Shown: positions 2,665 through 26,815, counted from the stretch's first letter. The stretch: 35,032 nt of DNA from Aciduliprofundum sp. (GCA_002878135.1 PNIT01000176.1:1-35032), one strand, 5' to 3'. Numbers and translations are program-made. Notes: generated by a model from the letters alone, not told the origin.

Positions 2665-3807
2665 ATGAGAGTAATTGTTGTTGGTGGCGGAGCAGGAGGA
2701 ACAATCGTTGCAAACAGGCTTTCAAGATTGCTTTCAGATAACGTTGACAGGGGTGAGCTGGAGATCGTTGTTCTTGACAAGAGTGAATATCACTATTATC
2801 AGCCAGGATATCTATTTGTAGCCCTGGGGGAGGAAGAACCTGAACATTTCATAAGAAAGGAGAGGGAACTCCTTGATGAAAATATTAAATTCTTCCATGG
2901 TGACCAGGGTGAAGTTGTGAAGATTATGGCTGCAGAGAATAAACTCCAGACAAAGGATGGAAGGATATGGGATTATGATTATATTGTACTTGCACTGGGA
3001 TCCATTCCGTACCTAGATGCAATACCTGGTCTGAAGGAGGGATCATACAGTTTCTATACAATGGAGGATGCAATCAAGCTGAGGGATGCCATCAATGATT
3101 TCAGGTCGGGGAAGGTTGTGGTGGGTGTTTCTTCATTACCATATAAATGCCCCGTTGCACAGTACGAGATACTCTTTGCACTCCATGATCTTTTTATAAA
3201 GGAAAAGAAGGATGCAAAGTTTGAGTATTTCTTCCCACTAAAGGGTACACATCAGCACCCTGCAGTAAGTCCTGTGGGTGAGAGATGGATGGTGGAGAAG
3301 GGTATAAAGATAATATCACCATTCAATGTTACCAGGGTGGATCCGGATAAGAAGGTAATATACTCAAAGGAAAATATTGAGATAAAATACGATATGCTGA
3401 TTGTTATTCCACCTCACATCTCACCAAGGGTGGTGAGGGATTCGGGCCTAGCTGATATGTGGGTTCCCACGGATCCATACACGCTTAAGTCTTTAAAATA
3501 TGACAATATGTATCTTCTGGGGGATATTACGGACATACATGGTGTACCCAAGGCAGGTTCTGTGGCAGAATACCAGGCTTCAGTTGTGGCCAAGAACATT
3601 GCATCCAGGATAAAGAAATCCGGTACAGTTTACAAATATGATGGAAGCGCATTCTGTTTCATAATGCACAGCATGGATGAGGCAGGTTATCTCTACATGG
3701 CATACACAAAACCACCCGTAATATCACTTCCATCAAAGTATGCAAAATGGATGAAGATGCTATACAATGAACTTTATTGGGGAATGTCTGCAAAGGCGGA
3801 GATATGA
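2665..3807 (+). CDS. sqr: sulfide:quinone oxidoreductase / FCSD-family FAD-dependent oxidoreductase (type III-like)
   Basis: GGGAGG FAD-binding motif, HYYQPG, YKCPVA (first Cys), LGD, PKAGS, YDGSAFCFI (second Cys), C-terminal amphipathic helix. Confidence 0.8.
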   Translation: MRVIVVGGGAGGTIVANRLSRLLSDNVDRGELEIVVLDKSEYHYYQPGYLFVALGEEEPEHFIRKERELLDENIKFFHGDQGEVVKIMAAENKLQTKDGRIWDYDYIVLALGSIPYLDAIPGLKEGSYSFYTMEDAIKLRDAINDFRSGKVVVGVSSLPYKCPVAQYEILFALHDLFIKEKKDAKFEYFFPLKGTHQHPAVSPVGERWMVEKGIKIISPFNVTRVDPDKKVIYSKENIEIKYDMLIVIPPHISPRVVRDSGLADMWVPTDPYTLKSLKYDNMYLLGDITDIHGVPKAGSVAEYQASVVAKNIASRIKKSGTVYKYDGSAFCFIMHSMDEAGYLYMAYTKPPVISLPSKYAKWMKMLYNELYWGMSAKAEI

Positions 3808-3818
3808 GGTGATGAAAT

Positions 3819-4658
3819 ATGGTAAAGAAAACGGATGTAGCAAACAAAAATACGCACTCACTGCTTGAATTGATGGATCTTGTTAAGAGGGACGAACTTG
3901 TAAGGGTAATAAACAAGGTAATAGAGCTCCAGAAGGATGGCACAATAGATAAACTCCTCGCCGTTCTTGAGATACTTTCAAAGGATAAGACAGTTGAAAG
4001 GCTTTACTTCAAGGTTCAGGATCTATCAGAGAAGGGAACATTATCAAAGATGCTGGAGGGTAATCTACTGGACAGGCAGCTTGATGCACTCCTCAAGCTC
4101 TTACAGGATGGATCCCTGCTTAAGCTGATAGACATAGTGCTTGATCTCCAGAAGAAGGGTATACTGGATCAGCTTGTTGATCTACTTTCAAAATCCACAG
4201 TTCTACTGGATAGGCTCATGGAACTCCAGAAACAGGGATATATCGATATAAATTCAATATCCAGGTTGCTTGAGAAACTCCTTGTGATGATGAAGGAGGG
4301 AACGTTTGAAAAGCTACTCTCATTGCTGTCACCTCAGCTCATAGAGCTGGCATCCGCTCTTGTTGATTTGCTTAACTCTGAGGAATACAAGGAATATGTT
4401 CTAGAGCTCGGTTCCAAACTCTTCATACTTGTGGATAAGATAATTGAGCTTGACAGGAGGGGAATGCTGGATATTTCAAAGATATCCTCCCTTGTTGAGA
4501 AGTTTGTATATATGCTCAACAATGGAACATTCGACAAGCTCATAGATCTATTGACAATGCTATCTGCTCTTCTGGATGCGCTCAATGATGAGATGGTTAA
4601 GAGCATCGCACAGAAGGCAAACAAGGCCCTTGAGATGCTTGAGCCAGGAAAATTATAA
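3819..4658 (+). CDS. repetitive all-helical Leu-rich protein, DUF1641-like partner of SQR
   Basis: GAGGTGA RBS, 11 bp after the sqr stop. Eight LxxxG(T/I)(L/F)DxL-type motifs and a C-terminal DALNDEMV resembling proteins encoded downstream of type III SQRs. Confidence 0.6.
   Translation: MVKKTDVANKNTHSLLELMDLVKRDELVRVINKVIELQKDGTIDKLLAVLEILSKDKTVERLYFKVQDLSEKGTLSKMLEGNLLDRQLDALLKLLQDGSLLKLIDIVLDLQKKGILDQLVDLLSKSTVLLDRLMELQKQGYIDINSISRLLEKLLVMMKEGTFEKLLSLLSPQLIELASALVDLLNSEEYKEYVLELGSKLFILVDKIIELDRRGMLDISKISSLVEKFVYMLNNGTFDKLIDLLTMLSALLDALNDEMVKSIAQKANKALEMLEPGKL
4188..4553 (+). repeat. intragenic 47-codon duplication (4188-4328 and 4413-4553)
   Basis: SKSTVLLDRLMELQKQGYIDINSISRLLEKLLVMMKEGTFEKLLSLL aligns without gaps to SKLFILVDKIIELDRRGMLDISKISSLVEKFVYMLNNGTFDKLIDLL, offset 75 aa. 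Confidence 0.85.
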
Positions 4659-4666
4659 AAAATTTT

Positions 4667-5857
4667 TTATGTTTTTTCTTCTGCAGCGTAGAGTTCAAGC
4701 AACCTTTCAGGCTTTGTGAGGTCGAAGTAGAGATCGAATATATTGTCTATCTGTGACTGCAGTGTCATCCAGTATATCCTTGCCATCATCATCTTCATTA
4801 GATGCTTGAGCCTATCGGGTGGATATGGTACAACAGGATGCTCGTAATCTGCGATAACGAATGTTCCAAGACCATAACCTAGGTCAAAGGGGCAGTTTAT
4901 CCTTCCATTGAATTTAGAATCCAGCCCATGGAATAGATCCGCCACCACCTTTGCCTCAAGGTGTGCAGTAACACCTGTCTTGGATGTTGGCAGATTGTTT
5001 GTATCCCCCAGGGCAAATGCATCATCGAAGCCATTCACCCTCATGATGTACTTGTCCACCTTGACAAAACGGTCATCATCTATCACATTCTCCGGCTCAT
5101 ACTTGATCCTCACACCCCTGCAGGGTGGAACAATGGCAGGGAAATCGTATTTGATCTCCTCCCCCTCCATGGATATTATCTTTCTGTTAACTGGATCCAC
5201 GCTATCAACATTGAAGAATGGTACTACCTCTATACCCCTTTCCTTAACAATGGGCTCCACTATCCTGTTCATGGGCTCTGCAGGATATGCCCTTGGGAAT
5301 GGTGTAAGGAATATGAACCTGGTCTTGTTCTTCAGTCCCTTTTTATTTATGTACTCTTCGGCCATTAAAATACCCTCAAGCATGGATGGCGGGCATTTGC
5401 ATATTGTGCTTGATTGTGCGAGGACGAATGTTCCACCGTTGAAATCCTTGAACTTATTCCATAGCTTCCTTGCATTATCAAGTGTGCTGTGATAATCACC
5501 ATATTCATTATGAACAGTTTCAAGACCGGGTATTGTGGATACATCTGGTGTGGTTCCGGTACATATGGTGATGAAATCATAGTCATACTTCCTTTCAGAT
5601 ATTGTCTTCACATACCTGTCATTCAGGTTTATCTCCACCACCTCATCCTTGTAGAATTTAACGCCTGGTTTTATCAGGTCACTTATTCTCCTGTATATCT
5701 TCCTGTTTGATCCCTTGAATGCCACGTAAAGGTACCAGGGCTGATAGTAATGGTATTCGCTCTTATCAATTATTGTAATTTCATAATCTTTCAGGTTCAG
5801 GGAATTTGCTAGTATGATACCGCATCCACCACCGCCTATTATAAGTACCTTCTTCAT
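4667..5857 (-). CDS. sqr: second sulfide:quinone oxidoreductase-family flavoprotein
   Basis: Start moved to ATG 5857 (MKKVLIIGGGGCG, GGTGAT RBS upstream). HYYQPW, CKCPPS, LGD, SKTG, FNGRINCPF. Confidence 0.78.
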   Translation of the reverse strand: MKKVLIIGGGGCGIILANSLNLKDYEITIIDKSEYHYYQPWYLYVAFKGSNRKIYRRISDLIKPGVKFYKDEVVEINLNDRYVKTISERKYDYDFITICTGTTPDVSTIPGLETVHNEYGDYHSTLDNARKLWNKFKDFNGGTFVLAQSSTICKCPPSMLEGILMAEEYINKKGLKNKTRFIFLTPFPRAYPAEPMNRIVEPIVKERGIEVVPFFNVDSVDPVNRKIISMEGEEIKYDFPAIVPPCRGVRIKYEPENVIDDDRFVKVDKYIMRVNGFDDAFALGDTNNLPTSKTGVTAHLEAKVVADLFHGLDSKFNGRINCPFDLGYGLGTFVIADYEHPVVPYPPDRLKHLMKMMMARIYWMTLQSQIDNIFDLYFDLTKPERLLELYAAEEKT

Positions 5858-5971
5858 CTTATCACCGAATATCGTAATCAAATTTCTCTATAAAATATTT
5901 TCCAATTCCTAAATTTTTAAAAAAATTTCCTTAAAAATTTATCGAAATTAATCATTAAAATAACGAAAAAT

Positions 5972-6751
5972 TCAAACACCTGCCTCCTCCAGTACCCTTC
6001 TGCACTTTTTTGAATCAACCCTTTCAATATCATTTACTGAGGCCTTCAGTACCTCCTTTGCCTTGTACTCATTTTCCTTCATTATTTTAATTACCTCCTC
6101 CGCAGTTACAGGTTTTTCTGCCCATACATCGTAGTCCGTAATGGTGGCAAGGGTGCTGTAGCACAGTCCAAGTTCCCTTGCAAGGTTTATCTCGGGAACA
6201 AGTGTCATCCCTATGATATCGGCAAAGTTCCTGAAAATCCTCGATTCTGCCCTTGTTGAGAACCTTGGTCCCTCTATGCAGATGTATGTTACATTCTCAT
6301 GCACCCTGTAACCCAGGTTCTTTGCATTCCTTGCCATTATTCCGTTCATATCCTCACAGAATGGGTCAGCCATGGATACATGAACCACCTTGGGACCATC
6401 GTAGAATGTGTATTCCCTTCTCTTAGTGAAATCTATGAACTGTGAAACTATGGCAAGATCCCCCGGCCTTAGATTCTCCTTCAAAGATCCAACAGCGCTT
6501 ATTCCTATGATCTTCTCTATACCTATCTCCTTCAGGGCAAAGATGTTTGCCCTGTAGTTAATTTTATGCGGAGGTATCCTGTGCCCCTTATCGTGCCTGG
6601 GAAGGAATGCCACAGTAACACCAGATATGGTACCTATGCTTATGTAGTCCGAGGGTGAACCGTACGGTGTGTGCAAGATCATCTTTTCCTTCTCTTCGAA
6701 AATATCGCCTATACCGCTCCCACCTATTATTGCTACCTTTGCCTTCTCCAT
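5972..6751 (-). CDS. mtnP: S-methyl-5'-thioadenosine phosphorylase
   Basis: [44 protein letters not shown] motifs. Confidence 0.93.
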
Positions 6752-6775: not shown

Positions 6776-7945
6776 TTAAGATTTTTTGGGTATGTAGAAC
6801 ATCATCAGGGAGCCTGCTATTGATATCACACCTATGATTATGAATGCAAGGTAGATGTTCAACGTCTGTGCAAAAACGCCTATGGCAATGGATCCAAGGG
6901 CACCTCCAATGCCACCCCCCAGACCGAATATGACGGCAGAATTCTCAGCCAGTTCCTCATCACTGGATAGCTCACCCACAAAGACCATGAGGAGTGGGAA
7001 ATTGGACATACCGAAGAAGTATGTAACTATGAATATGATTGATACGGTGTAGACATTGGAAACAAACATAAGGAGTATGAGCAGTATGCCAGGTATGAGT
7101 GATGTAACTATCAGCATTGTTTTTCCTCCATACCTGTCCGAGAGATATCCAAGGAATGGCTGCCCTACAATAGCAGTTGAATTCGCGATGAAAAGTATTA
7201 TGGCTATCAGGAAAGATGAGTAGTGCAGCGTGCTGTTCAGGAATGCTGGTAAAAGGTTGAAACCTCCCTGTATGGCTGTGTTTCTCAGGATTGTTGCAAC
7301 AAGGAAGAATGCTATTGGCAATGAAAACCTGAACACACCCCTCTTTATCTTCTTTTCAACGTATATCTCCTCCTTCCTCATATCATAGGCCACATAAAGT
7401 GATATTGCACCCATTATGAATGAGATTGATATTATTGAAAACACAAAATTTTTGTTGAATGCTGCAAGGAAACCCTCCATGATGACAGGGAAGAGTGCCC
7501 TCCCAAGGCTTCCGCCTATACCATTTATGCCAAGTACTGTCCCTGCATAATCCCTGTATCTGTAGTTGAGAATCATGGATCCTATGGGATGGTAGATTGT
7601 CGAAAATATGCTAATTATGAACATTGAAAACATGAATGATGGTATCGCGATGTACTGTGGATAAGGAGGTACAAGGAGAAGGAATGATAGGCTGAAGAGG
7701 AACATACCTATACCCATGAAAAGGCCCTTTTTCCTCGTACTGTCTATGTACCTGCCCATATATGGTGAAACAATGGCACTTCCTATGTAATAGCTCATGA
7801 GTATCATGGATTCTGCAAAGAATGAAAGATTGTAATTCTCCTTTATCATTATTATGAGGAAGAATGGAAGATAGGACAGGCCATCGTTTATGAAATGTGC
7901 AATGGTTGTATCGATCAAAATTCTATCAATCTTTATCCTTGTCAT
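6776..7945 (-). CDS. MFS transporter (FSR-like)
   Basis: About 12 hydrophobic segments; AHFIND, GRYIDS and GYLSDRYG (motif A copies), YHP. Confidence 0.9.
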   Translation of the reverse strand: MTRIKIDRILIDTTIAHFINDGLSYLPFFLIIMIKENYNLSFFAESMILMSYYIGSAIVSPYMGRYIDSTRKKGLFMGIGMFLFSLSFLLLVPPYPQYIAIPSFMFSMFIISIFSTIYHPIGSMILNYRYRDYAGTVLGINGIGGSLGRALFPVIMEGFLAAFNKNFVFSIISISFIMGAISLYVAYDMRKEEIYVEKKIKRGVFRFSLPIAFFLVATILRNTAIQGGFNLLPAFLNSTLHYSSFLIAIILFIANSTAIVGQPFLGYLSDRYGGKTMLIVTSLIPGILLILLMFVSNVYTVSIIFIVTYFFGMSNFPLLMVFVGELSSDEELAENSAVIFGLGGGIGGALGSIAIGVFAQTLNIYLAFIIIGVISIAGSLMMFYIPKKS

Positions 7946-7985
7946 TTAAAACAAAAAGTGAAAGCAATCCTGTAATTAAAACTTT

Positions 7986-8816
7986 TCAGAAGATGGTCTT
8001 CTTTTTTACACCCTGTGGAAGTATCCTGGATGCAACCTGAAAATTCCTTCCATCCCTTGAAATGAAATCCATGAGAACATAGCCCCTAGCAAAGTAATGC
8101 TGGTAAACATCAGATGTCATGATCCTCCAGTTTATTGCATCCTCAAGGTTCTTCTTCTTAATGGTATTTATATCCCTTGGTATCTCAATCAGGATATAAT
8201 CATCTGAGAGTGTGAGATCGATGTCCTTAGGTATCCTGTAATCACCCTTCTCCTCCGTTATTATTGCCTGGGGTAATTCACCGTAGCTATTATATTCCCT
8301 GTTCAGCCTTGATTTCACATGCCCGGAAAGAACGTACCACTCAGCCACCACCCTGTCCGATGGTATGCCAAAGTTCAGTGAATCCATCATGGTTCCGTAG
8401 TGGTTCTTCCTGTATGTCCTGGCTATGGCACCCAGCTTGTGGAGGTTGAAGTTTGAATTAAGACCCTGCAGCGGATCGAATGTCCAGGCAACAAGATCAA
8501 AACCCTTCTCCATGGCCCATTCCCTCTGCCTCAGCTTCAGGGAATAGCCAAGCTCAGTCTTCCTGAATTCGGGTATAACACCCGTCATATGTGAATAGAG
8601 GAAGAGGTTCCTATTCCTCTGGGCCAGCAGGGAGAAGGATATGCCCACCACCTGATCACCCTCGTATGCTAGAAGTACCAGGCCACCCGTGAATTTTATG
8701 GCTGTGAGGAGATCCTTCATTATTGTGCTCATATCCGTAACTCCCCATGCCTGTTTTATTACCTCAACACCCTTCCTTATCTCATCGGGGTTTTCAGCTA
8801 TCTCAATCCTTGGCAT
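7986..8816 (-). CDS. GNAT-family acyltransferase, probable D-amino acid N-succinyltransferase
   Basis: GGLVLLAY, LYSHMTGV, LKLRQREWA, WTFDPL, NLHKLGA, YG...N.G.PSDR..AEW motifs of the GNAT subfamily found next to NSAR genes. ATG at 8816 follows GGAGG and overlaps the M20 stop. Confidence 0.82.
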   Translation of the reverse strand: MPRIEIAENPDEIRKGVEVIKQAWGVTDMSTIMKDLLTAIKFTGGLVLLAYEGDQVVGISFSLLAQRNRNLFLYSHMTGVIPEFRKTELGYSLKLRQREWAMEKGFDLVAWTFDPLQGLNSNFNLHKLGAIARTYRKNHYGTMMDSLNFGIPSDRVVAEWYVLSGHVKSRLNREYNSYGELPQAIITEEKGDYRIPKDIDLTLSDDYILIEIPRDINTIKKKNLEDAINWRIMTSDVYQHYFARGYVLMDFISRDGRNFQVASRILPQGVKKKTIF

Positions 8817-9918
8817 TTTCAATCATCCTCCTGTAGATATCCCTGAATGTGATGAGCCTTTCAAGTGTAATATGCTCATCTGATCCATGGGCATTGTCAA
8901 GTGCAAAATCACCAGGACCGAATACAACAGTCTCAATGCCGTAGGCAATCATGTAGTTTGCATCATTGGACCCCTTACCCCCTATCGGTTCAGGAAATCT
9001 GCCCGTAACATCATGCACAGCCCCCTTCACCATACCAATGACATTGGAATCCAGGGGAATCTCCGCCGGTGGTACCTGATGTATTATCTCCACACTCATA
9101 TCCTTTCCCGTCAATCCTATCTCCTTTTTTATTCTTTCCATCAGGCCATCAACATCCATGGATGGTATTGTCCTTATGTCAAGAGTTGCCTCAGCATGGT
9201 CGGGTATAACATTCACCTTCTCACCACCATGGAAGGTGGTGCCCAGTGCCATGGTGGGATCCGGCAGATATTGATGCTTCCTGAAATCCATTCTAATGGA
9301 CTTTAGCCTTAACAGTAAGTCAGCAAGATTCATCACTGCATTATCACCAAGTTCAGGATCACTTCCATGGGCACTTTTTCCCCTGGAGATAATTTTTAAC
9401 CAGAGTGTTCCCCTTATACCCGGCCTGTAACATATCCTACCGTTAAAAACGGAACCTTCCATCACCACACCGTACCTTGCCCTGAGTTCCTCCAGTATAC
9501 TCCTGGTTCCAAGCTCTCCACCCTGTTCCTCATCAGCAACAAATGCAAATTTAAATTTTTTCAGCATATCCTTCTCTCCACGATCAACAATCTCCTCAAT
9601 GGCAACTATGAGGCTTGCCAGCGCTCCCTTCATATCCGAGGATCCCCTGCCGTAGATTATGTTACCCACGATCTCACCGTACGGGTTGTGTGTCCAGTAT
9701 CTGCCCACGGGCACGGTATCCATATGGCCGTTGAAAACAAGAAGATCCCCTGTGCCGAAGATAAGATTTACCCTGTTCTCACCCCTCCTTATTTCCTTCA
9801 GGTCCAGATAGTCCCTGAGCCTGGATTTGATAACATCCGCAACACCAGATTCATTCCCCGGTGGATTTTCACTCCTCTCCCTTATAAGCTCAAGTGTAAG
9901 TGCAGCAAGATCATCCAT
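8803..9918 (-). CDS. M20 family metallo-hydrolase (ArgE/DapE-like), probable N-succinyl-L-amino acid desuccinylase
   Basis: SENPPG, NGHMDTVP, GRGSSDMKG, DEE, AHGS, NVIP and AHGSDE metal-ligand motifs. Confidence 0.85.
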   Translation of the reverse strand: MDDLAALTLELIRERSENPPGNESGVADVIKSRLRDYLDLKEIRRGENRVNLIFGTGDLLVFNGHMDTVPVGRYWTHNPYGEIVGNIIYGRGSSDMKGALASLIVAIEEIVDRGEKDMLKKFKFAFVADEEQGGELGTRSILEELRARYGVVMEGSVFNGRICYRPGIRGTLWLKIISRGKSAHGSDPELGDNAVMNLADLLLRLKSIRMDFRKHQYLPDPTMALGTTFHGGEKVNVIPDHAEATLDIRTIPSMDVDGLMERIKKEIGLTGKDMSVEIIHQVPPAEIPLDSNVIGMVKGAVHDVTGRFPEPIGGKGSNDANYMIAYGIETVVFGPGDFALDNAHGSDEHITLERLITFRDIYRRMIENAKD

Positions 9919-9924
9919 AAGGAA

Positions 9925-11013
9925 TCACCCTATCCTAAATGCATACCTGCTGTAACTTGATTTTTCAATGAATTCAATGTCGGGTTCAACACCTATTCCA
10001 TTGCCAGAGGGCACTGCAATGGTACCCTTCTCCATAATGAATGGCCTTTTTATTACATCCTTTTCAAAGTATCTGTCGCTCGGGCTTGTATCACCGGGCA
10101 GGGTGAACTCCTTCCTTGACTGCACTATAACATTCAGTGCCCTTCCTATACCCGTTTCCAGCATTCCACCGCACCATATTGGAATACCATTCTCCCTTGA
10201 GAAATCTATTATCCTCAGTGATTCAGAAAGTCCACCTACCCTGCCTATCTTCAGGTTTATTATCCTTCCAGCATCCATCTCATACATCCTCTCGGCATCC
10301 TCCACCGAATGTATGCTCTCATCAAGGCATATGGGTGTACTCATCTCCCTCTGAAGTTTTGAATGCCCGAGGAGATTCCTCTCATTCAGGGGCTGTTCTA
10401 TCATCAGGAGCTCGTATCTGTCAAGCATCTTTACCCTTTCCACATTTTTTTCAAAGGCCTGGTTTGCATCCACCGTAAGAGGTATATCACCGAATTCCTC
10501 CCTCACCCTCTTTACAACATCAACATCCCAGCCAGGCTTCACCTTCAGCTTTATCCTCTTGTATCCCCTATCAAGGGAATTCCTTATCATGGAAAGTAGC
10601 TTTTCCATGGGAAGTATGCCTATGCTTATTCCGGAATCTATCTTCTCCTTACTACCACCAATGATTTCCTTAAGGCTTTTACCCTTCCTCTTTGCCTGGA
10701 GGTCCCAGAGCATGGTTTCAACTGCAGATTTTGCCATATTGTGACCCTTAATCTTTCTTGCCCTTGAAATGAATTCCATTGGATCCTCAGTTTCCTTAAG
10801 TATTTCAAGGAGATAGGTCCTGAATATGTAGAGTGCAGTACCATTATCCTCATAGCTGTAACCAGGATATGAGTCTGTAACACTCTCCCCCCAGGCCTCT
10901 ACATCCCCAGAATATCTGAAAAGCAGGACATCCCTGACATTCTGCACGCCGAAGCTTGTTTCAAAAGGTACCTTGAGGGGAATTTTCATATTATAAACAA
11001 TGATCTCCGCCAT
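9925..11013 (-). CDS. menC: N-succinylamino acid racemase / o-succinylbenzoate synthase (NSAR/OSBS subfamily, enolase superfamily)
   Basis: FETSFG, KLK, DAN, EQP, LDE, NLKIGRVGG, WCGGMLETGIG and PGDTS motifs. Confidence 0.88.
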   Translation of the reverse strand: MAEIIVYNMKIPLKVPFETSFGVQNVRDVLLFRYSGDVEAWGESVTDSYPGYSYEDNGTALYIFRTYLLEILKETEDPMEFISRARKIKGHNMAKSAVETMLWDLQAKRKGKSLKEIIGGSKEKIDSGISIGILPMEKLLSMIRNSLDRGYKRIKLKVKPGWDVDVVKRVREEFGDIPLTVDANQAFEKNVERVKMLDRYELLMIEQPLNERNLLGHSKLQREMSTPICLDESIHSVEDAERMYEMDAGRIINLKIGRVGGLSESLRIIDFSRENGIPIWCGGMLETGIGRALNVIVQSRKEFTLPGDTSPSDRYFEKDVIKRPFIMEKGTIAVPSGNGIGVEPDIEFIEKSSYSRYAFRIG

Positions 11014-11101
11014 TGGAAAGATTATCCTGATTTACAATAAGAAATTTTTCCTTCATGGATTGACAAAAAAATAATAATCATAAAGATTTTTCAATGAATG
11101 C

Positions 11102-11746
11102 ATGAAAATCTCAAGGGAGTATGGTGGCTGGGTAACAGCATCCCTCACCTTCATATTATCCCTATCACTCTGTTTTAAATCTGGTAGAATTTCCATTGTT
11201 TGCATAATAATATGGATACCAGTATTCATCGGTCTTATATTTTTTGATAACAATAAGGATGAGATTCCAGTTTATATGAAGATAACAATTGTGATATTAT
11301 TCGTAATATCATTATTTTTATATATATATATAATTATACCCTACTCCTTTTTTCTTTCCTCCTATGTTCTGAAACATAAAAGGATGAAAAACTATCTTGT
11401 TACGCTCACAGGAATTGCGGGAGAATCACTTATGCTTGCAGTATCCATGAGCATCTCCGGGTATTCCAGCTTTTATGTTCCAGCCCTCATATTCATATAT
11501 CTCTATGGTGCAGAATTCGGTGTACAGTCCTTCATCAGGAGGAATTTTTACGTATCCCTCTACAACATTCTTCCGGCGATATTCTTCATCCTTGGTTACA
11601 GTGCATTCATTATCTGTCTTGTAAGGCTTTCCTATTTTAAATTAAAAAATATAAAAATTCTGGGAGTTCTGGAAACAATGCTCTACGCAATAATCATAAT
11701 ATCAATCATGGCAGGGTTTAAAATTCCCCCGTTTGGCCAGGTTTAA
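11102..11746 (+). CDS. hypothetical multi-pass membrane protein, possibly YwiC-like
   Basis: 214 aa, mostly hydrophobic with about 7-8 TM segments; N-terminal SREYGGW resembles the PxxHGAW start of YwiC-like proteins. Confidence 0.6.
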   Translation: MKISREYGGWVTASLTFILSLSLCFKSGRISIVCIIIWIPVFIGLIFFDNNKDEIPVYMKITIVILFVISLFLYIYIIIPYSFFLSSYVLKHKRMKNYLVTLTGIAGESLMLAVSMSISGYSSFYVPALIFIYLYGAEFGVQSFIRRNFYVSLYNILPAIFFILGYSAFIICLVRLSYFKLKNIKILGVLETMLYAIIIISIMAGFKIPPFGQV

Positions 11747-13036: not shown

Positions 13037-15526
13037 ATGGAAACACCTCTGATGAAACAGTATTACGAGATAAAGAAAAAGTACAAGGACATGATTCTAT
13101 TCTACAGGGTAGGTGACTTCTACGAGACCTTCGGCGATGATGCAAGGGTTGTTTCCAGGGAACTGAACATAGTGCTCACATCAAGGAACAGGGAAAGGGA
13201 GAACATACCAATGGCAGGAATACCATACCATGCTCTCTACTCCTACATTGGTAAGCTCGTTAACAGGGGTTACAAGGTGGCACTCTGTGAACAGCTCGAG
13301 GACCCCAGGTATGCAAAGGGCATAGTGAAGAGGGATGTTGTCAGGGTATTCACTGCAGGAACTGTATACGAGGATGAGCTCATAACATCAGTGACAAACT
13401 ACATATGCTCCATAGATCTTGAAAATAGAGGAGCAATAGTCTTTGCTGATGTATCAACAGGTGAATTCAGGGGAACATGGTTCGATGAGGATCCCATTGA
13501 AAATATAATTTCAGAGATACAGAAGATAAATCCAAGGGAGGTGGTATTTGCAAATGCCATAAATGCTGAGATCAAGAACCTCCTTGAACAGAAGAACATA
13601 CCCTACAACGTGGAGGATATTGACAGATTTGAATCCACGGACATAATGAAAAGGCATTCAATGAATTCAGGAATGCTCGATAACGATGAGATTCTCAACG
13701 CCACGGGTGCCCTCCTTAAATATCTTGAGAGGACGAACATTGATGCATTCAGGTCCCTTGGTGATCTCAGGATATACAGGAGGGGGGATTACCTGATCAT
13801 GGATGATACAACACTGAAAAATCTGGAGATTTTCAGTGATATCAGGGGTGAGGTAAAGAATTCGCTTCTCGGTATTCTTGATCACTGCAGCACAAGGATG
13901 GGCAGCAGGATTCTCAGGAGATACCTCTTTCATCCATCCATAGATCCAGATGTTATAAGGGAAAGGCAGGATATGGTATCATCCTTCCTGGGGGATACGA
14001 TATCCAGGCTATCAATCATAGATCTACTGAGGAAATTACCTGACATTGAAAGGATCTGGTCAAGGGTGGAGGCTGGAAGGGCCTCACCCCAGGATCTAAT
14101 ATCCCTGAAGAGGGCATCCTTCGTTATAAGGGATATCCTGGCTATACTCTCCTCCATGAAGAATATGGAGGATCTGAAGAACAGGATCTGGTCCATGGAT
14201 ACACTTGCAGAAAAGATTGATAGGGCAATAAATGAGGATTTTACCACAAGCAGGATAAGGGATGGCTATGATCAGGTCCTGGATAGCTACAGGAGGATAA
14301 TATCTGAAAAGGAAAGGCTGATAGGTGAGATAGAGAGGAAGGAGATAGCCGCAACAGGTATAAAGAATCTGAGGATTGGCTACAATGAGGTATTCGGTTA
14401 CTACATAGAGGTGCCAAAATCCCAGGCATCCAGGGTACCTGCATACTACATAAGGAAACAGACACTTAAGAATGTGGAGAGGTACACAACTCAGGAATTA
14501 CAGAACCTTGAATACAGCGTACAGGACGCAAGGCTGAACATTGAATCCAGGGAGGAGGAGATATACAGGAATCTACTTGATGAGTTATCAGGAATGGGAA
14601 ATGTTAGGTCAAGTGCCCTTGCCCTGGGGGAACTGGATTTCTATGTTACCATGGCCGACCTCGCTGCGAAGAGGAGGTATTCCAGACCCGTAATAGATGA
14701 ATCCACAGATATAGAGATAAAGGAAGGAAGGCATCCAGTTCTTGAGCTTCAGGGTGATTTCATACCAAATGATGCAATCCTTGATACTGATGGGAATAGG
14801 TTCATCATATTAACCGGCCCGAACATGGCGGGAAAGAGCACATACATGAGGCAGATTGCACTCATCATAATAATGGCGCAGATAGGGAGCTTTGTACCTG
14901 CTGGAAGTGCAAGGATAGGGGTTGTGGACAGGATATTTACGAGGATAGGTGCAAGTGATGACATACTCAGGGGAAGGAGCACATTTCTTAACGAGATGGT
15001 TGAGCTATCAAACATACTGAACAATGCCACGAAGAGGAGCTTCATAATACTCGATGAGGTGGGAAGGGGGACCAGCACCTTTGATGGCCTGAGCATAGCC
15101 TGGGCAGCGGTGGAATACATACACAACAGGATAGGTGCAAAGACAATATTCGCCACACATTACCATCAGCTCATTGAGATGGAGAACAATCTTGAGGGTG
15201 TCAAGAATTACCATATGCCCGTCATTGAGGAGAACGGCAGGCTTGTTTTCACAAGGAAGGTAAGGAGGGGAGGCATAAGCGAAAGCTACGGTATAGAGGT
15301 GGCTGCAATGGCAGGTCTCCCCGGGGATTTCCTTGAAAGGGCAAGGGAGATACTTAAAAAGATAGAGGAGGAGAATGTCCTGGAGGTAAGGAAGCACAAA
15401 ATAACCCAGAGGAGCCTCCTTGAATTGTTCATAATGGAGGAGTTGAGGGGCATAGATCCAGATAAGATTGATGGTGAAAAGGCAAGGGAATTAATTAAAA
15501 GGATAAAGGAGATGATTCAGGGGTAG
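13037..15526 (+). CDS. mutS: DNA mismatch repair protein MutS (MutS1)
   Basis: TPLMKQY, GDFYE (mismatch-binding Phe-X-Glu), PMAGIP, GRHPVLE, Walker A GPNMAGKST, Walker B ILDEVGRGTS, FATHY, SYGIEVA. Confidence 0.97.
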   Translation: METPLMKQYYEIKKKYKDMILFYRVGDFYETFGDDARVVSRELNIVLTSRNRERENIPMAGIPYHALYSYIGKLVNRGYKVALCEQLEDPRYAKGIVKRDVVRVFTAGTVYEDELITSVTNYICSIDLENRGAIVFADVSTGEFRGTWFDEDPIENIISEIQKINPREVVFANAINAEIKNLLEQKNIPYNVEDIDRFESTDIMKRHSMNSGMLDNDEILNATGALLKYLERTNIDAFRSLGDLRIYRRGDYLIMDDTTLKNLEIFSDIRGEVKNSLLGILDHCSTRMGSRILRRYLFHPSIDPDVIRERQDMVSSFLGDTISRLSIIDLLRKLPDIERIWSRVEAGRASPQDLISLKRASFVIRDILAILSSMKNMEDLKNRIWSMDTLAEKIDRAINEDFTTSRIRDGYDQVLDSYRRIISEKERLIGEIERKEIAATGIKNLRIGYNEVFGYYIEVPKSQASRVPAYYIRKQTLKNVERYTTQELQNLEYSVQDARLNIESREEEIYRNLLDELSGMGNVRSSALALGELDFYVTMADLAAKRRYSRPVIDESTDIEIKEGRHPVLELQGDFIPNDAILDTDGNRFIILTGPNMAGKSTYMRQIALIIIMAQIGSFVPAGSARIGVVDRIFTRIGASDDILRGRSTFLNEMVELSNILNNATKRSFIILDEVGRGTSTFDGLSIAWAAVEYIHNRIGAKTIFATHYHQLIEMENNLEGVKNYHMPVIEENGRLVFTRKVRRGGISESYGIEVAAMAGLPGDFLERAREILKKIEEENVLEVRKHKITQRSLLELFIMEELRGIDPDKIDGEKARELIKRIKEMIQG

Positions 15527-16449: not shown

Positions 16450-16543
16450 CTTTTCACCCTGAGAGAATTGGAGAATGTTTTTGAAATATTTAAAAAAAAC
16501 TGATGGAAAATAAAATATACAGGTTTTTACCTTATTGGATATT

Positions 16544-17809
16544 ATGAGCATTTTAATTAAGGGAGGAATGGTTGTTACCCAGAACCTTGATAGAAAGATC
16601 ATGGATGCTGATATTTACATTGATGAGAACTTCATAACAGAGATAAATAGAAACATATCCGTTGAGGCGGACCATGTGATAGATGCAAGGAACAGGATAG
16701 TGATGCCCGGATTGATAAATACTCACACCCATGTGGGCATGTCCATGTTCAGGGGTGCCGTTGAGGATATGCAGCTGGACAGGTTCCTGGAGAAGACTTT
16801 TAAACTGGATGCCCAAAGAACAGAGGAGGACATTTATTATTCATCCCTACTTTCAATGGCGGAGATGATAAGGACAGGTACCACATCATTCCTTGATCTA
16901 TACTATGACGAGCATATAGTTGCAAGGGCAGTGGAGAAATCAGGAATGAGGGGATTCCTATCATGGGTAACGCTGGATAGGGAGTTCACCACCCAGAAGG
17001 GCGAACCATTGAAGAATGCTGAGGAGTTTATCTCATCACACAGGGGAAAGGAGAGGGTAGTTCCATCCATAGGGTTCCAGGGCGTTTATGTATGCTCAGA
17101 TGAAACACTCCTAAAGGGAAAGGAGATAGCTGAAAGGTACGGTGTAATAGAGCACATGCACCTTTCAGAAACAAGGAAGGAGGTCTACGATTATTTAAAA
17201 AAGAAGAACAAAAGGCCTGTGGAGCATCTCAAGGAGATAAATTTTCTCAGCAATAATCTGGTGGCCGCCCATACCGTATGGTTGACCGTAAGGGAGATAG
17301 ACTATCTGGGACAATCTGGTGTAAGCGTTTCACATAATCCTGTTAGCAACATGAAACTTGGAACCGGGGGTGCTGCACCTGTACCAGAGATGATGAAAAG
17401 GAATGTTAATGTTACACTTGGCACGGATAGTTCTGTGACAAACAACAACCTCGATATGTTCGACGTGATGAAGACGGCAGGATTGATGCACAAGAATGAT
17501 AGATGGGATGCATCTGTATTACCATCACAGTCGATACTTGATTTTGCCACCATAAATGCTGCAAAGGCGCTGAAGGTATCATCGCTCCTTGGATCCATAG
17601 AGGAGGGTAAGCTCGCGGACATCATAATCCTGGATCCTTTCCCATCAGGTATTCCATTGAAGAAGGAGAACATAGTTGCAAACATAGTGTATGCTCTAAA
17701 GGGTCTGAATGTTACACATACAATAGTGGATGGCAGGATACTTATGTCCTCCGGTGTAATAAGATCATTCGATGTTGGTGAGGTATTATCCTTCATGGAA
17801 AAGATCTAG
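16544..17809 (+). CDS. amidohydrolase, MTA/SAH deaminase-like (COG0402)
   Basis: PGLINTHTH, GTT, HLSET, AHTV, HNPVSNMKL, LGTD, GKLAD. Confidence 0.85.
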   Translation: MSILIKGGMVVTQNLDRKIMDADIYIDENFITEINRNISVEADHVIDARNRIVMPGLINTHTHVGMSMFRGAVEDMQLDRFLEKTFKLDAQRTEEDIYYSSLLSMAEMIRTGTTSFLDLYYDEHIVARAVEKSGMRGFLSWVTLDREFTTQKGEPLKNAEEFISSHRGKERVVPSIGFQGVYVCSDETLLKGKEIAERYGVIEHMHLSETRKEVYDYLKKKNKRPVEHLKEINFLSNNLVAAHTVWLTVREIDYLGQSGVSVSHNPVSNMKLGTGGAAPVPEMMKRNVNVTLGTDSSVTNNNLDMFDVMKTAGLMHKNDRWDASVLPSQSILDFATINAAKALKVSSLLGSIEEGKLADIIILDPFPSGIPLKKENIVANIVYALKGLNVTHTIVDGRILMSSGVIRSFDVGEVLSFMEKI

Positions 17810-19011
17810 GTTACATATAGAAGTGCAAATACAACGGCATCTTTAACAAGGTTATCAATCTTGCAGTATTCATTGGGACTGTGTTCAACAGGATCCAGCG
17901 TTGACCATACAACAGCGGGAAATCCCCTTCTCCTCAGGATTGCTGCGCATGTGCCTCCACCTATACCCACCAGCTTTGGCTCTATGCCCCTCTTTTCCCT
18001 GAGTATCCTGAGCAGCTTCTGTACGATCTCAGAATTCCTATCGGTTGTTCCAGCACTATCCGCCCTCTGAACGATGGAAAAATCTATGGTTGCTCCTGTG
18101 TTCCTCTCTACCCTGGCACATATGTTTTTAACATCCTCAATTACACTATCTATGGAATACTGTGGAAGTATCCTGCAGTCAAAGTAGAACCTTTCCTTTC
18201 CAGGTATTGTGTTTATGTTCTGCACGTTCGCTTCCCTCTTTGTGGGTTCAAAGGTGGAGTATGGTGGTATGAATATATCATCCCTCGCATCATATTTTAC
18301 GTGCAATTCTTTATCTATTTCAACTGCAATTTCATTGGCTATCCTGTGCGCATTCAGGCTGAGATCGGGTCTTGAGCCATGGCCCTGCCTTCCATTGACT
18401 GTGATGGAGAACCAAAGAATACCCTTTTCAGATATCTCCACCTCTGTACCATCCTCATTCCCTGAATCTGGTACAAGGAATTCATCCCCATCACCGAATT
18501 TATAATTCCGTACAACATACTCAAGGCCCCATCTGCTTCCCATCTCCTCATCTGATGCGAATATGAGGCCAATGGAATTCCTTGGCCTAATGCCAGATAT
18601 CTTCACAGCCTTGAATGCGTAGAGGGCACCAACAAGTGACTGCCCATTATCCTCACTGCCTCGGCCATATATCTTACCATCCTTTATGTAGGGCTTGAAC
18701 GGATCCCCTTCCCAGAGGCTCCTGTCGCCCTCTGGCACAGTATCCATGTGGGCCACTATCCATATTGTCTTTTCCCTGTTCTCACCATAGATCCTTGCCA
18801 ATATGTTTGGCCTTATGATACCCCTGTCATCCCTGGCATCCACCCTTATTATCTCATCAGGTCCTATCTCCCTGAGCTTTTTCTCCAGAAAGTTTGCCCT
18901 ATCAAGCTCACCCTTGCCACCGGATTCAGGGCTTATTGCCACAATGGGTATCATCTCCATTAGCGTATTTACCATATCATCCTTCATGGATAGTACAATA
19001 TTTTCAATCAT
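17806..19011 (-). CDS. M20 family metallo-hydrolase (DapE-like / dipeptidase)
   Basis: SPESGGKGE, AHMDTVP, GRGSEDNGQ, DEE, VPD, EKG, HGS, GGGT, HSPNE. Confidence 0.9.
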   Translation of the reverse strand: MIENIVLSMKDDMVNTLMEMIPIVAISPESGGKGELDRANFLEKKLREIGPDEIIRVDARDDRGIIRPNILARIYGENREKTIWIVAHMDTVPEGDRSLWEGDPFKPYIKDGKIYGRGSEDNGQSLVGALYAFKAVKISGIRPRNSIGLIFASDEEMGSRWGLEYVVRNYKFGDGDEFLVPDSGNEDGTEVEISEKGILWFSITVNGRQGHGSRPDLSLNAHRIANEIAVEIDKELHVKYDARDDIFIPPYSTFEPTKREANVQNINTIPGKERFYFDCRILPQYSIDSVIEDVKNICARVERNTGATIDFSIVQRADSAGTTDRNSEIVQKLLRILREKRGIEPKLVGIGGGTCAAILRRRGFPAVVWSTLDPVEHSPNEYCKIDNLVKDAVVFALLYVT

Positions 19012-24921: not shown

Positions 24922-25320
24922 TCATTCCACCTTTATCTTTGAAGCCTTTCCTATTGGAACAGTCACAGTCAAAACTCCATTCTCATACTTTGATGTTGCT
25001 TTTTCCTCCTCAACATTCACGGGTAATAATATTCTCTTATAGAATCTCTCAGGTCTCTGCCTCACATGTACAAGTGATTTTTCACCGTAATCTATCTTCC
25101 TGTTCACCTGTATCTTGAGGTATGCGGAGCTGATCTCCACGTTTATGTCCTCTTTCCTTAGACCTGGCAGGTCAGCGGTGATTACAAGATTGTTGTCTAT
25201 CTCCACTATATCCACTGGAGGTAGCACCGATTCAAAAAATCCCTTTCTCCTTTCAGCCATCAATTTCTCCACATCGTTTTTAATATCCTCCGTGAAGAAT
25301 TTTAGCCAAGTTTCCACCAT
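24922..25320 (-). CDS. hsp20: small heat shock protein (Hsp20/alpha-crystallin)
   Basis: PPVDI.E, ADLPG..KEDI, YENGVLTVTVP and C-terminal IKVE motif; AGGTGA RBS. Confidence 0.92.
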   Translation of the reverse strand: MVETWLKFFTEDIKNDVEKLMAERRKGFFESVLPPVDIVEIDNNLVITADLPGLRKEDINVEISSAYLKIQVNRKIDYGEKSLVHVRQRPERFYKRILLPVNVEEEKATSKYENGVLTVTVPIGKASKIKVE

Positions 25321-25668
25321 CTTATATCACCTATAAATTATAAGATGGTTTACTTAATTAATTTTTTGTTATAATTTTTGCCAATTTTATCAGGAATAAA
25401 CAGGTAAAAATCCTCTCAGAAAGATTAATTCTTCATAATTTTCCTTTATTTCTCTTTTAAATTAAAGACATTAAAAAAGATTAAAAGGATGATGTTAAAT
25501 AGAGTTCATAGATTAAAGATTTCTTAAAAAGCCCGTATTTACTAATGAATTAAAGTACCCGAAGAATTTAAGATGTAATTCTCATCGCTATGGAATTTTT
25601 TTTTTGGGATCACGATTTCTGTGCACTGGTAATTATTTATATCAGAAACATTTTATGGGGTATATATA

Positions 25669-26715
25669 ATGGAAACAGTTAATAGAAAACCGTACATATC
25701 GGTGATAATAACTGCCCATAACAGGAAGGAATTTCTTAAGGAAGCCATTCAGTCTGCATTAAATCAAACACTTGAAAGATCAAACTATGAGATCCTGGTA
25801 ATCAAGAATTTTAAGGATGAAGAGATAGACAGAATTATAGAGCAAAATGGTATAAGAAACATATTCACCAGGGATGAAAGCACGATAGGGGAAGATCTTG
25901 CACTAGGAATTGAGAAATCGGAGGGGGATGTCTTATGTTTTCTGGATGATGATCTATTTTTCCCTGAAAAATTGCAGACTGTTTTTAATAAATTTAAGAA
26001 ATACGATGAATTATCCTATTTCCATAATGGTGCATACTTCATAGATGAAAAAGGGAATTCCATAAAATTCTGGATAGAAGAACTGGACCAAGATTTAGTC
26101 TTTAAAGAAATCAAAAGTCTTGATCAACTATTAAAATTAATTGGTTATGGACTTTTCTTCAATATGAGCAGTATCAGTGTGAAAAAAAATAAAATTTCTC
26201 CATATCTGAATGAATTAAAATTAATTTCAACGAATCCTGATGTTTTTATGTTTTTTATATCAGTTTATCAAGAACCTAGGATGTTTATTCTCTCAAGAGA
26301 AAAATTGACGAAATACAGGGTGCATCAAAGTTCTTCAGTCTTCATTGGCACGGATGAAAAAGATTTAGCAAGAAATAAAATAGAATTCTGGTACAAGTCA
26401 ATCAGGAGTAATGGAATAATCTATGAAATAATAAAAAAGGATAAGTTCTTAGCACCTATAATTGATTATCATATAATTAAAAATAAATTTTTCATTCATT
26501 TATATGGAGAAAGAATTAATATTTCAATTATAGAAATTTTTAAATATATAAATTATGCAATTAAAGAAAAAGATTTGAAAGAATACATTGATGCCTTCTA
26601 TCACATATCCCTGATTTTACTGTCAAAGATCTTTTATGAAAAGATTGTTATTTACTATAGAAGAAGAAATTTTATGTATCTTAAAAGAAAATATGAATAT
26701 TATATTAATAAATAG
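25669..26715 (+). CDS. family 2 glycosyltransferase
   Basis: ISVIITAHNRKEFL, SALNQ, FLDDD, FNMSSI, LTKYRVH; visibly AT-rich, especially the 3' half. Confidence 0.88.
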   Translation: METVNRKPYISVIITAHNRKEFLKEAIQSALNQTLERSNYEILVIKNFKDEEIDRIIEQNGIRNIFTRDESTIGEDLALGIEKSEGDVLCFLDDDLFFPEKLQTVFNKFKKYDELSYFHNGAYFIDEKGNSIKFWIEELDQDLVFKEIKSLDQLLKLIGYGLFFNMSSISVKKNKISPYLNELKLISTNPDVFMFFISVYQEPRMFILSREKLTKYRVHQSSSVFIGTDEKDLARNKIEFWYKSIRSNGIIYEIIKKDKFLAPIIDYHIIKNKFFIHLYGERINISIIEIFKYINYAIKEKDLKEYIDAFYHISLILLSKIFYEKIVIYYRRRNFMYLKRKYEYYINK

Positions 26716-26815
26716 GGGTGTATATTTAAAAATCTCGGGAATCAAAGTAAAATTTCTCAGAAGGGTGTAATGAAAAATTATATCTACAATTAAGGAATTC
26801 ACTTATTAAGGTGAT

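Follow-up and report, generated by a model that had tools for sequence, protein, structure and literature searches.

The 35,032-nucleotide stretch of Aciduliprofundum sp. DNA analysed here (GCA_002878135.1, PNIT01000176.1:1-35032; hereafter the window) carries, between positions 6,776 and 11,013, four genes that an earlier reading of the locus (the original prediction) took for a complete operon for the conversion of D- to L-amino acids by succinylation and racemisation, equipped with a transporter of its own. At its core lie a predicted racemase from the subfamily of N-succinylamino acid racemases (NSAR) and o-succinylbenzoate synthases (OSBS), written NSAR/OSBS below, and a GNAT-fold protein, and it is this pair that we find to be a conserved unit in archaea and bacteria, and not a chance association. 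Together with an M20 hydrolase encoded between the two, genes 7986-11013 probably encode an N-acylamino-acid racemisation route with a net flow from D to L. Listed in the direction of transcription, the features of the locus are:

11014..11101, no strand: AT-rich divergent intergenic region of 88 bp, 5' of the racemase gene; predicted promoter region
9925..11013, minus strand: NSAR/OSBS-subfamily enzyme of the enolase superfamily, 362 aa (TIGR01928, MR_MLE domains); predicted N-acyl(succinyl)amino acid racemase
8803..9918, minus strand: M20 metallohydrolase of the DapE/ArgE type, 371 aa (Peptidase_M20, M20_dimer); predicted N-acyl-L-amino acid deacylase
7986..8816, minus strand: GNAT-fold protein, 276 aa from ATG 8816 or 278 aa from TTG 8822 (assigned by fold); predicted amino acid N-acyl(succinyl)transferase
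6776..7945, minus strand: MFS transporter, 389 aa (MFS_1); membership in the module uncertain
5972-6751, minus strand: methylthioadenosine (MTA) phosphorylase (MTAP), 24 bp past the MFS gene

The four genes are co-oriented and tightly packed, as had been described, and the open reading frames (ORFs) and coordinates agree with the gaps and the overlap given for them: 6 bp (9919-9924) separate the racemase and M20 genes, the M20 and GNAT genes overlap by 14 bp when counted from ATG 8816 (20 bp from TTG 8822), and 40 bp (7946-7985) lie between the GNAT and MFS genes. The ATG at 8816 has an AGGAGG motif 10 nt on its 5' side and matches the N-termini of the GNAT relatives. The GNAT gene lies 1.1 kb from the racemase gene. 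On the upstream side, a plus-strand gene at 11102-11746 adjoins the racemase gene across the divergent intergenic region, which, judging from its composition and position, is the likely promoter region of the racemase gene. On the downstream side, the packed and co-oriented run does not end with the fourth gene, but continues into the MTAP gene and, a further 90 bp beyond it, into a gene for a sulfide:quinone reductase (SQR)-like protein, so that packing alone cannot bound an operon here; the compact arrangement of the four genes stands, their delimitation as a run of four does not. The window itself is archaeal, as it encodes archaeal-type uS2, Trm112, Hsp14 and MreA, and the closest relative of its GNAT-like protein, at 99% identity, comes from a Thermoplasmata metagenome-assembled genome (MAG). 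No tRNA genes were found in it.

Strong evidence for a functional connection comes from the genomic surroundings of GNAT relatives. A locus scan with a 19-sequence GNAT alignment over one genome per GTDB species returned at least 601 pattern matches, 600 of them confirmed, placing relatives of this protein in at least 600 species genomes. The best 80 loci (L001-L080; 36 archaeal and 44 bacterial by record title) were analysed with the four window proteins as tblastn queries. An NSAR/OSBS gene lies within 300 bp of the GNAT gene in 20 of the 36 archaeal and 17 of the 44 bacterial loci, at 300 bp to 1.5 kb in a further 4 and 3, and at about 2 kb in none and 1, respectively; it is missing despite flanks of at least 2.5 kb on both sides in 7 archaeal and 22 bacterial loci, and in the remaining 5 and 1 the flank is too short to judge. 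The two genes thus lie no more than 1.5 kb apart in 44 of these 80 loci (24 archaeal, 20 bacterial), usually as GNAT followed by NSAR on the same strand. As a control, we clustered the neighbouring ORFs, which recovered the GNAT family in 64 loci and NSAR in 35 (by ORF calling), with M16 peptidases, found in 6 loci, as the next most common family. Given how often the two are linked, and how far behind the next neighbour family falls in frequency, GNAT and NSAR make up a genuine two-gene unit that is conserved in archaea and bacteria alike. Archaeal loci with the GNAT gene come from Thermoplasmatota, Thermoproteota (including Sulfolobales and Acidilobales), Nitrososphaerota, Marsarchaeota and the Asgard lineages Jord-, Freya-, Thor- and Heimdallarchaeota, and the pair itself occurs in Thermoplasmatota, Thermoproteota, Nitrososphaerota and Asgard, so that the locus is not a rare archaeal case. 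Of the synteny expected in archaeal genomes, it is the pair that recurs (24 of 36 loci), while the M20 type and the MFS transporter of the window are found again only in L001, a Thermoplasmata MAG. In three loci from Thermoplasmataceae and their relatives (L005, L006 and L007), the GNAT-family gene stands directly 3' of two genes for glycine-cleavage P-protein subunits; L006 alone of the three shows an NSAR gene, divergently adjoining the GNAT gene, and none is seen in the stretches from the other two.

By its sequence, the predicted racemase is a full member of the NSAR/OSBS subfamily with every catalytic residue in place. It scores 347.7 bits against TIGR01928 (cut-off 200.65), an NCBIfam model named menC_lowGC_arch, and displays the two-domain architecture of the enolase superfamily (MR_MLE_N, 31.5 bits; MR_MLE_C, 159.5 bits). 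Among solved structures it comes closest to the Amycolatopsis N-acylamino acid racemase (1sja, E-value 3.9e-90), and its sequence identity to N-acylamino acid racemases that have been characterised is 40-45%. The KxK motif, the second catalytic lysine, the metal-binding acidic residues and the second-shell arginine (R266 in Amycolatopsis numbering) all align to 1sja, and K155, K157, D182, E206, D231, K255 and R258 are invariant in all 46 aligned homologues. The motifs F-E-T-S-F-G and K-x-G-R-V-G-G named in the original prediction were located at residues 17-22 and, as K-I-G-R-V-G-G, 255-261.

We computed a quick maximum-likelihood tree from 46 racemases, with an arbitrary root and without five truncated hits of less than 300 residues; in it, the window protein pairs with that of L001 (support 100) inside a clade of Thermoplasmatota and Nitrososphaerales (support 99). 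The clades of this tree are coherent by lineage, with Thermoplasmatota and Nitrososphaerota in one and Thermoproteota and Asgard in another, and the archaeal label requires only 2 changes on it, compared to a mean of 15.8 after shuffling, with none of 500 shuffles as low. The tree therefore points to a long residence of the racemase in archaea and not to a recent transfer.

The assignment of the protein encoded at 7986..8816 to the GNAT superfamily, which is marked by a fold with an acyl-CoA-binding beta4-alpha3 motif, is based on its predicted fold together with a sub-threshold Pfam hit. The match to Acetyltransf_6 reaches 20.7 bits, below the cut-off of 22, and for this reason the call was checked by structure; several relatives in the same family exceed the Acetyltransf_1 cut-off (35-39 bits vs 20.7). 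From an alignment of 91 sequences, AlphaFold2 gave a model with a mean predicted local distance difference test (pLDDT) score of 95.8, and in Foldseek searches residues 1 to ~165 of the model match GNAT structures (2r7h and Naa50, 3tfy) at E-values of ~1e-7 and target-normalised template modelling (TM) scores of 0.78-0.81. The family profile gives weak matches to solved GNATs, among them YqjY (1mk4) at an E-value of 1.8e-4. The family consensus contains a G-x-G loop, in which the window protein has a glutamate in place of the first glycine, and the protein carries an extra C-terminal domain of ~100 aa without a solved full-length counterpart. The family is large, with phmmer finding 3864 hits at E-values of 1e-3 or better among 1.84 billion cluster representatives, 2795 at 1e-10 and 444 at 1e-30. 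Among proteins of 488-2000 aa we found no Rosetta-stone fusions of the GNAT protein, which is weak evidence, and the longer family members hold only GIY-YIG, DUF309 or FGE-sulfatase pieces and are uninformative. Matches of the sequence to bromodomains among solved structures were discarded as chance hits. A few family members (P0017, P0026, P0323) bear the source name 'chorismate synthase', which looks like a propagated misannotation, as the domain evidence gives it no support.

The third enzyme of the putative route matches Peptidase_M20 (113 bits) and M20_dimer (76.2 bits) above their cut-offs, scores just under the cut-off of TIGR01910 (203.6 vs 217.6 bits) and passed no NCBIfam equivalog model. 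Among solved structures, succinyl-diaminopimelate desuccinylases come closest to it (7uoi, E-value 2.2e-27), and its metal-site motifs align to the DapE structure 7uoi. DapE hydrolyses an N-succinyl group off an L-centre, and a DapE-like chemistry would thus fit the proposed desuccinylation. An M20 gene is present between the NSAR and GNAT genes, but its subfamily is DapE/ArgE-like and not the TIGR01891 type (amidohydrolase, CpsA-like) that we find elsewhere, in L003, L033 and the operons of Lysinibacillus, Priestia and Bacillus. The two types are distant relatives, with an E-value of 3e-9 over 196 residues between the window protein and that of the Lysinibacillus operon, and in the majority of archaeal loci a hydrolase gene next to the pair is missing altogether. 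In sequence terms, the DapE/ArgE-type enzyme appears to be a lineage-specific choice of deacylase, standing in for a TIGR01891-type aminoacylase.

Two further observations concern M20 enzymes. In the Thermoplasmata loci L003 (4990-6979) and L033 (6819-8789), a TIGR01891-type M20 gene stands directly 5' of the GNAT gene, with no NSAR in the 6-8 kb flanks; an acylase and a deacylase without a racemase would make a futile pair unless a racemase is encoded elsewhere. The window holds a second M20 gene (17806-19011, minus strand; PRK13983, 544.8 bits vs a cut-off of 333), which lies 8 kb from the cluster and adjoins the Trm112 gene and an SdhABCD operon; if housekeeping deacylation falls to this one, as it might, the M20 enzyme of the cluster would be free for the racemase route.

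A link of the MFS transporter to the module is weak, judging from the comparison of loci. The protein matches MFS_1 with 158.2 bits over residues 15-337, which covers the 12-helix length, and passed no NCBIfam subfamily model, and among the 80 loci it has an orthologue only in L001 (58% identity), where an opposite-strand RNase H-like gene stands between GNAT and MFS and the MTAP and SQR genes then follow. The protein also lacks significant similarity to the MFS proteins encoded close to the module in L006, L009 and Lysinibacillus. With a single, separated orthologue that takes part in a general synteny with MTAP and SQR, and with unrelated MFS proteins elsewhere, the idea that the operon has its own MFS transporter had to be downgraded; transporters of several kinds do recur near the module in bacteria, so that a role in import is possible. 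The gene may instead belong with methylthioadenosine salvage. A PRK06380-type amidohydrolase of the MTA/S-adenosylhomocysteine (SAH)-deaminase group (605.8 bits) is encoded 10 kb away, at 16535-17809 (plus strand).

Taken as one route, the three enzymes could work as follows. The GNAT-fold enzyme would N-acylate a free amino acid, with succinyl-CoA as the most likely donor and the D-enantiomer as the most likely substrate; the NSAR/OSBS enzyme would turn the N-acyl-D form into the N-acyl-L form and back by way of a Mg-stabilised enolate, with the help of its two catalytic lysines; and the M20 hydrolase would deacylate the L-form. Overall, this would amount to an irreversible conversion from D to L at the cost of one thioester. 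Import of the substrate by the adjacent MFS protein may be added, as the weakest link of the proposal. A pathway of this kind, consisting of a GNAT succinyltransferase, an NSAR/OSBS enzyme and an M20 L-desuccinylase, was first found in Geobacillus kaustophilus, and NSAR/OSBS genes of Lysinibacillus and Roseiflexus lie in operons for it, according to texts from the Glasner laboratory (bioRxiv 10.1101/2022.03.03.481873; PMC12006748).

Several points weigh against a D-to-L route at this locus and have to be set against other explanations. The racemase homologue could be an OSBS serving menaquinone synthesis, with neighbours unrelated to it, an explanation that we regard as highly improbable. The subfamily does include genuine OSBS enzymes that match the window protein in motifs and HMM score: that of the Enterococcus faecalis men operon has both the second-shell arginine and the loop motif and scores 351.9 bits against TIGR01928, vs 347.7 here. 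Arginine and loop therefore do not separate NSAR from OSBS and lose the diagnostic value first given to them; the arginine occurs in all 46 members, the E. faecalis men-operon enzyme included, and the same Glasner-laboratory texts describe it as conserved throughout the subfamily. Since motifs and score also fit an OSBS, we base NSAR as the biological role on genomic context and on a published survey of archaeal MenC. In addition, the organism uses quinones, the window encoding a quinone-dependent SdhABCD complex, SQR-like enzymes and a UbiB-like protein, and the search for men genes covered the window and related loci. Within this scope, a menaquinone role is opposed by the strong linkage to the GNAT family and by the absence of men genes: none were found in the window, as originally claimed, either in scans of 35 script-picked ORFs of at least 70 aa with NCBIfam or Pfam models or by tblastn with E. 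faecalis MenB, MenE, MenF, MenD and MenH, and none by tblastn beside the 45 NSAR genes of L001-L080. The same holds for 83 related loci, in which the men queries matched generic crotonases (at two loci without NSAR) and one acyl-CoA ligase. According to the survey, the classical menaquinone pathway is present in archaea only in Halobacteriaceae, and a 'MenC' occurs without MenF or MenB in 5 of 30 crenarchaeal proteomes and in one korarchaeal (Zhi et al., 2014).

Another explanation takes only GNAT and NSAR as the functional unit, with the M20 protein as a biosynthetic DapE/ArgE-type deacylase, the MFS protein as a companion of MTAP, and the adjacency as incidental. This M20 type indeed joins the pair in just 1 of the 80 loci, namely L001 (61% identity, same position and same NSAR-M20-GNAT order), and synteny with L001 reaches through MFS, MTAP and SQR, so that the shared order may reflect close kinship; a TATA-like AT stretch is predicted ~29 nt before the MFS start. 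We nonetheless consider this explanation improbable, as the M20 gene is wedged between the other two, with a gap of 6 bp to NSAR and an overlap of 14 bp with GNAT (24 bp and 8 bp in L001), a spacing typical of co-translation, and M20 hydrolases of another subfamily hold the equivalent place in other lineages. It is likewise unlikely, to a lesser degree, that the same three enzymes serve another purpose or chemistry, such as acetylation, detoxification of D-amino acids or their analogues, salvage of N-acylated amino acids released by peptide breakdown, or a flow from L to D. Such alternatives draw on the predicted nature of the acyl donor and of the stereospecificities, and for our part we likewise infer which donor is used, the stereospecificity in both cases, the direction, and what the M20 enzyme does in the cluster. 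They draw also on the variable deacylase (DapE/ArgE-like here, TIGR01891 in L003, L033, Lysinibacillus, Priestia and Bacillus F19, and mostly none in archaea), on the peptide transporters, S9 peptidase and beta-lactamase-family gene of bacterial operons, which hint at peptide-derived substrates, and on the 29 of 80 loci, 7 archaeal and 22 bacterial, in which the GNAT gene has no NSAR nearby despite full flanks, so that the GNAT family may have other roles as well. Moreover, no Geobacillus protein occurs among the named ones of 88 relatives of the Virgibacillus GNAT member, a set for which names are partial, and homology of the GNAT sequences to those of bacterial operons does not prove orthology with the characterised Geobacillus enzymes. 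On the other side, M20 deacylases are L-specific, which favours a flow from D to L. Characterised NSAR enzymes favour N-succinyl substrates, as stated in the Glasner-laboratory texts.

If the three genes do encode a D-to-L route, genes labelled menC, GNAT or hypothetical, and dapE-like in many archaea would have to be read as parts of such a route and not of menaquinone or lysine synthesis, and the 'orphan MenC' homologues of archaea without the rest of the classical pathway would be explained. That automated labels miss the pathway was rightly anticipated, as the relatives are annotated menC, GNAT or hypothetical. A route of this kind would also raise the question why wall-less or peptidoglycan-free archaea, many of them from hot or acidic sites, keep it. 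Tentatively, the GNAT-NSAR pair could be an old and largely vertical archaeal system for restoring or salvaging amino acids of lost L-chirality, with the M20 subfamily varying by lineage and a DapE/ArgE type recruited in this Thermoplasmata clade, although we hold this to be possible rather than probable; in such a scenario, heat or acid would have racemised the amino acids, or they would come from the debris of bacteria. We infer this ecological rationale along with the succinyl donor and the D-to-L direction. Were it true, N-acyl racemisation would be a general archaeal route of chirality maintenance, undescribed as far as our literature searches reached. These found no characterised archaeal NSAR or N-acylamino acid racemase (NAAAR), while genome-context papers (Sakai, 2006; Odokonyero, 2014, 2018) may list archaeal members; the 2024-2025 texts examined do not mention archaea in the context of NSAR, and the succinyl route is absent from a 2024 review on the chirality of amino acids. 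As the core pair is common in archaea, the window represents an ordinary, uncharacterised member of a known pathway type.

Some features of the window lie apart from these genes. Two paralogues resembling type III sulfide:quinone reductases are encoded at 2665-3807 (plus strand) and 4667-5881 (minus strand), with 284 and 235 bits on NF049943 (cut-off 525), and enclose a gene (3819-4658, plus strand) for a leucine-rich, repetitive helical protein of 279 aa without a family match; paired SQR-like genes are present in L001 too. A full-length bacterial-type MutS1 (909.5 bits) is encoded in this archaeon at 13037-15526 (plus strand). The G+C content, 0.42-0.47 elsewhere in the window, falls to 0.31 at about 25000-27000, around the genes for a small heat-shock protein (24922-25320) and for a glycosyltransferase of family 2 (25669-26715).

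Among known systems, the D-to-L pathway of G. kaustophilus is like the window cluster in that the same three superfamilies are encoded together, with the racemase in the NSAR/OSBS subfamily; it differs in that the cluster described here is archaeal, has a DapE/ArgE-like M20 enzyme and is known from its genes alone. The comparison of the gene set with the bacterial D-to-L pathway, made in the original prediction, is supported by the GNAT family, whose members also stand beside the NSAR genes of Lysinibacillus, Bacillus, Priestia and Deinococcus. In Lysinibacillus fusiformis pMGMM7 the operon comprises a peptide MFS transporter, an M20 aminoacylase, GNAT and menC; on a plasmid of Bacillus sp. 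F19 it comprises five Opp/Dpp ABC genes, menC, GNAT, an M20 aminoacylase and an S9 peptidase; in Priestia an amidohydrolase gene lies 1.5 kb before GNAT-menC; and megaplasmid MP1 of Deinococcus radiodurans has menC, an ABC substrate-binding protein and GNAT. Homology of the window GNAT to those of Lysinibacillus (29% identity, E-value 7e-35) and D. radiodurans (34%, 6e-41) extends along the entire protein, and this links it to the acyltransferase encoded in the bacterial operons. The F19 operon (L085, 1-11095) runs on past the M20 aminoacylase into the S9 peptidase and a beta-lactamase-family gene, which, together with the five-gene Opp/Dpp ABC set, suggests D-residue peptides as the real feedstock there.

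The Bacillaceae plasmid operons thus share with the window the GNAT family, the NSAR subfamily (41-44% identity) and the presence of a transporter and an M20 gene in the cluster, and differ in their TIGR01891-type M20 enzymes, unrelated transporters and gene order. D. radiodurans shares the racemase subfamily (E-value 1.6e-86; solved, e.g., as 1r0m) and the GNAT family, but lacks an M20 gene in that stretch and has the ABC substrate-binding gene between racemase and GNAT. The E. faecalis OSBS (menB-E-F-D-H-C operon) resembles the window racemase in subfamily, catalytic residues, second-shell arginine and TIGR01928 score, and differs in its menaquinone context, where the window has GNAT and M20 genes and no men gene. 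Within archaea, the D-amino acid utilisation cluster of Pyrococcus horikoshii, the only one of its sort met in our searches, likewise joins a racemase, the pyridoxal phosphate (PLP)-dependent, broad-specificity PH0138, to a putative transporter and, in addition, a regulator of the FFRP type (PMC13628549), but racemises directly and reversibly with PLP, without a cycle of acylation and deacylation and with unrelated protein families. Measured against these systems, the cluster represents a modest gain, a variant in deacylase and not a new chemistry, of a pathway type known from bacteria; it deviates from the operons described in a single point, the type of deacylase.

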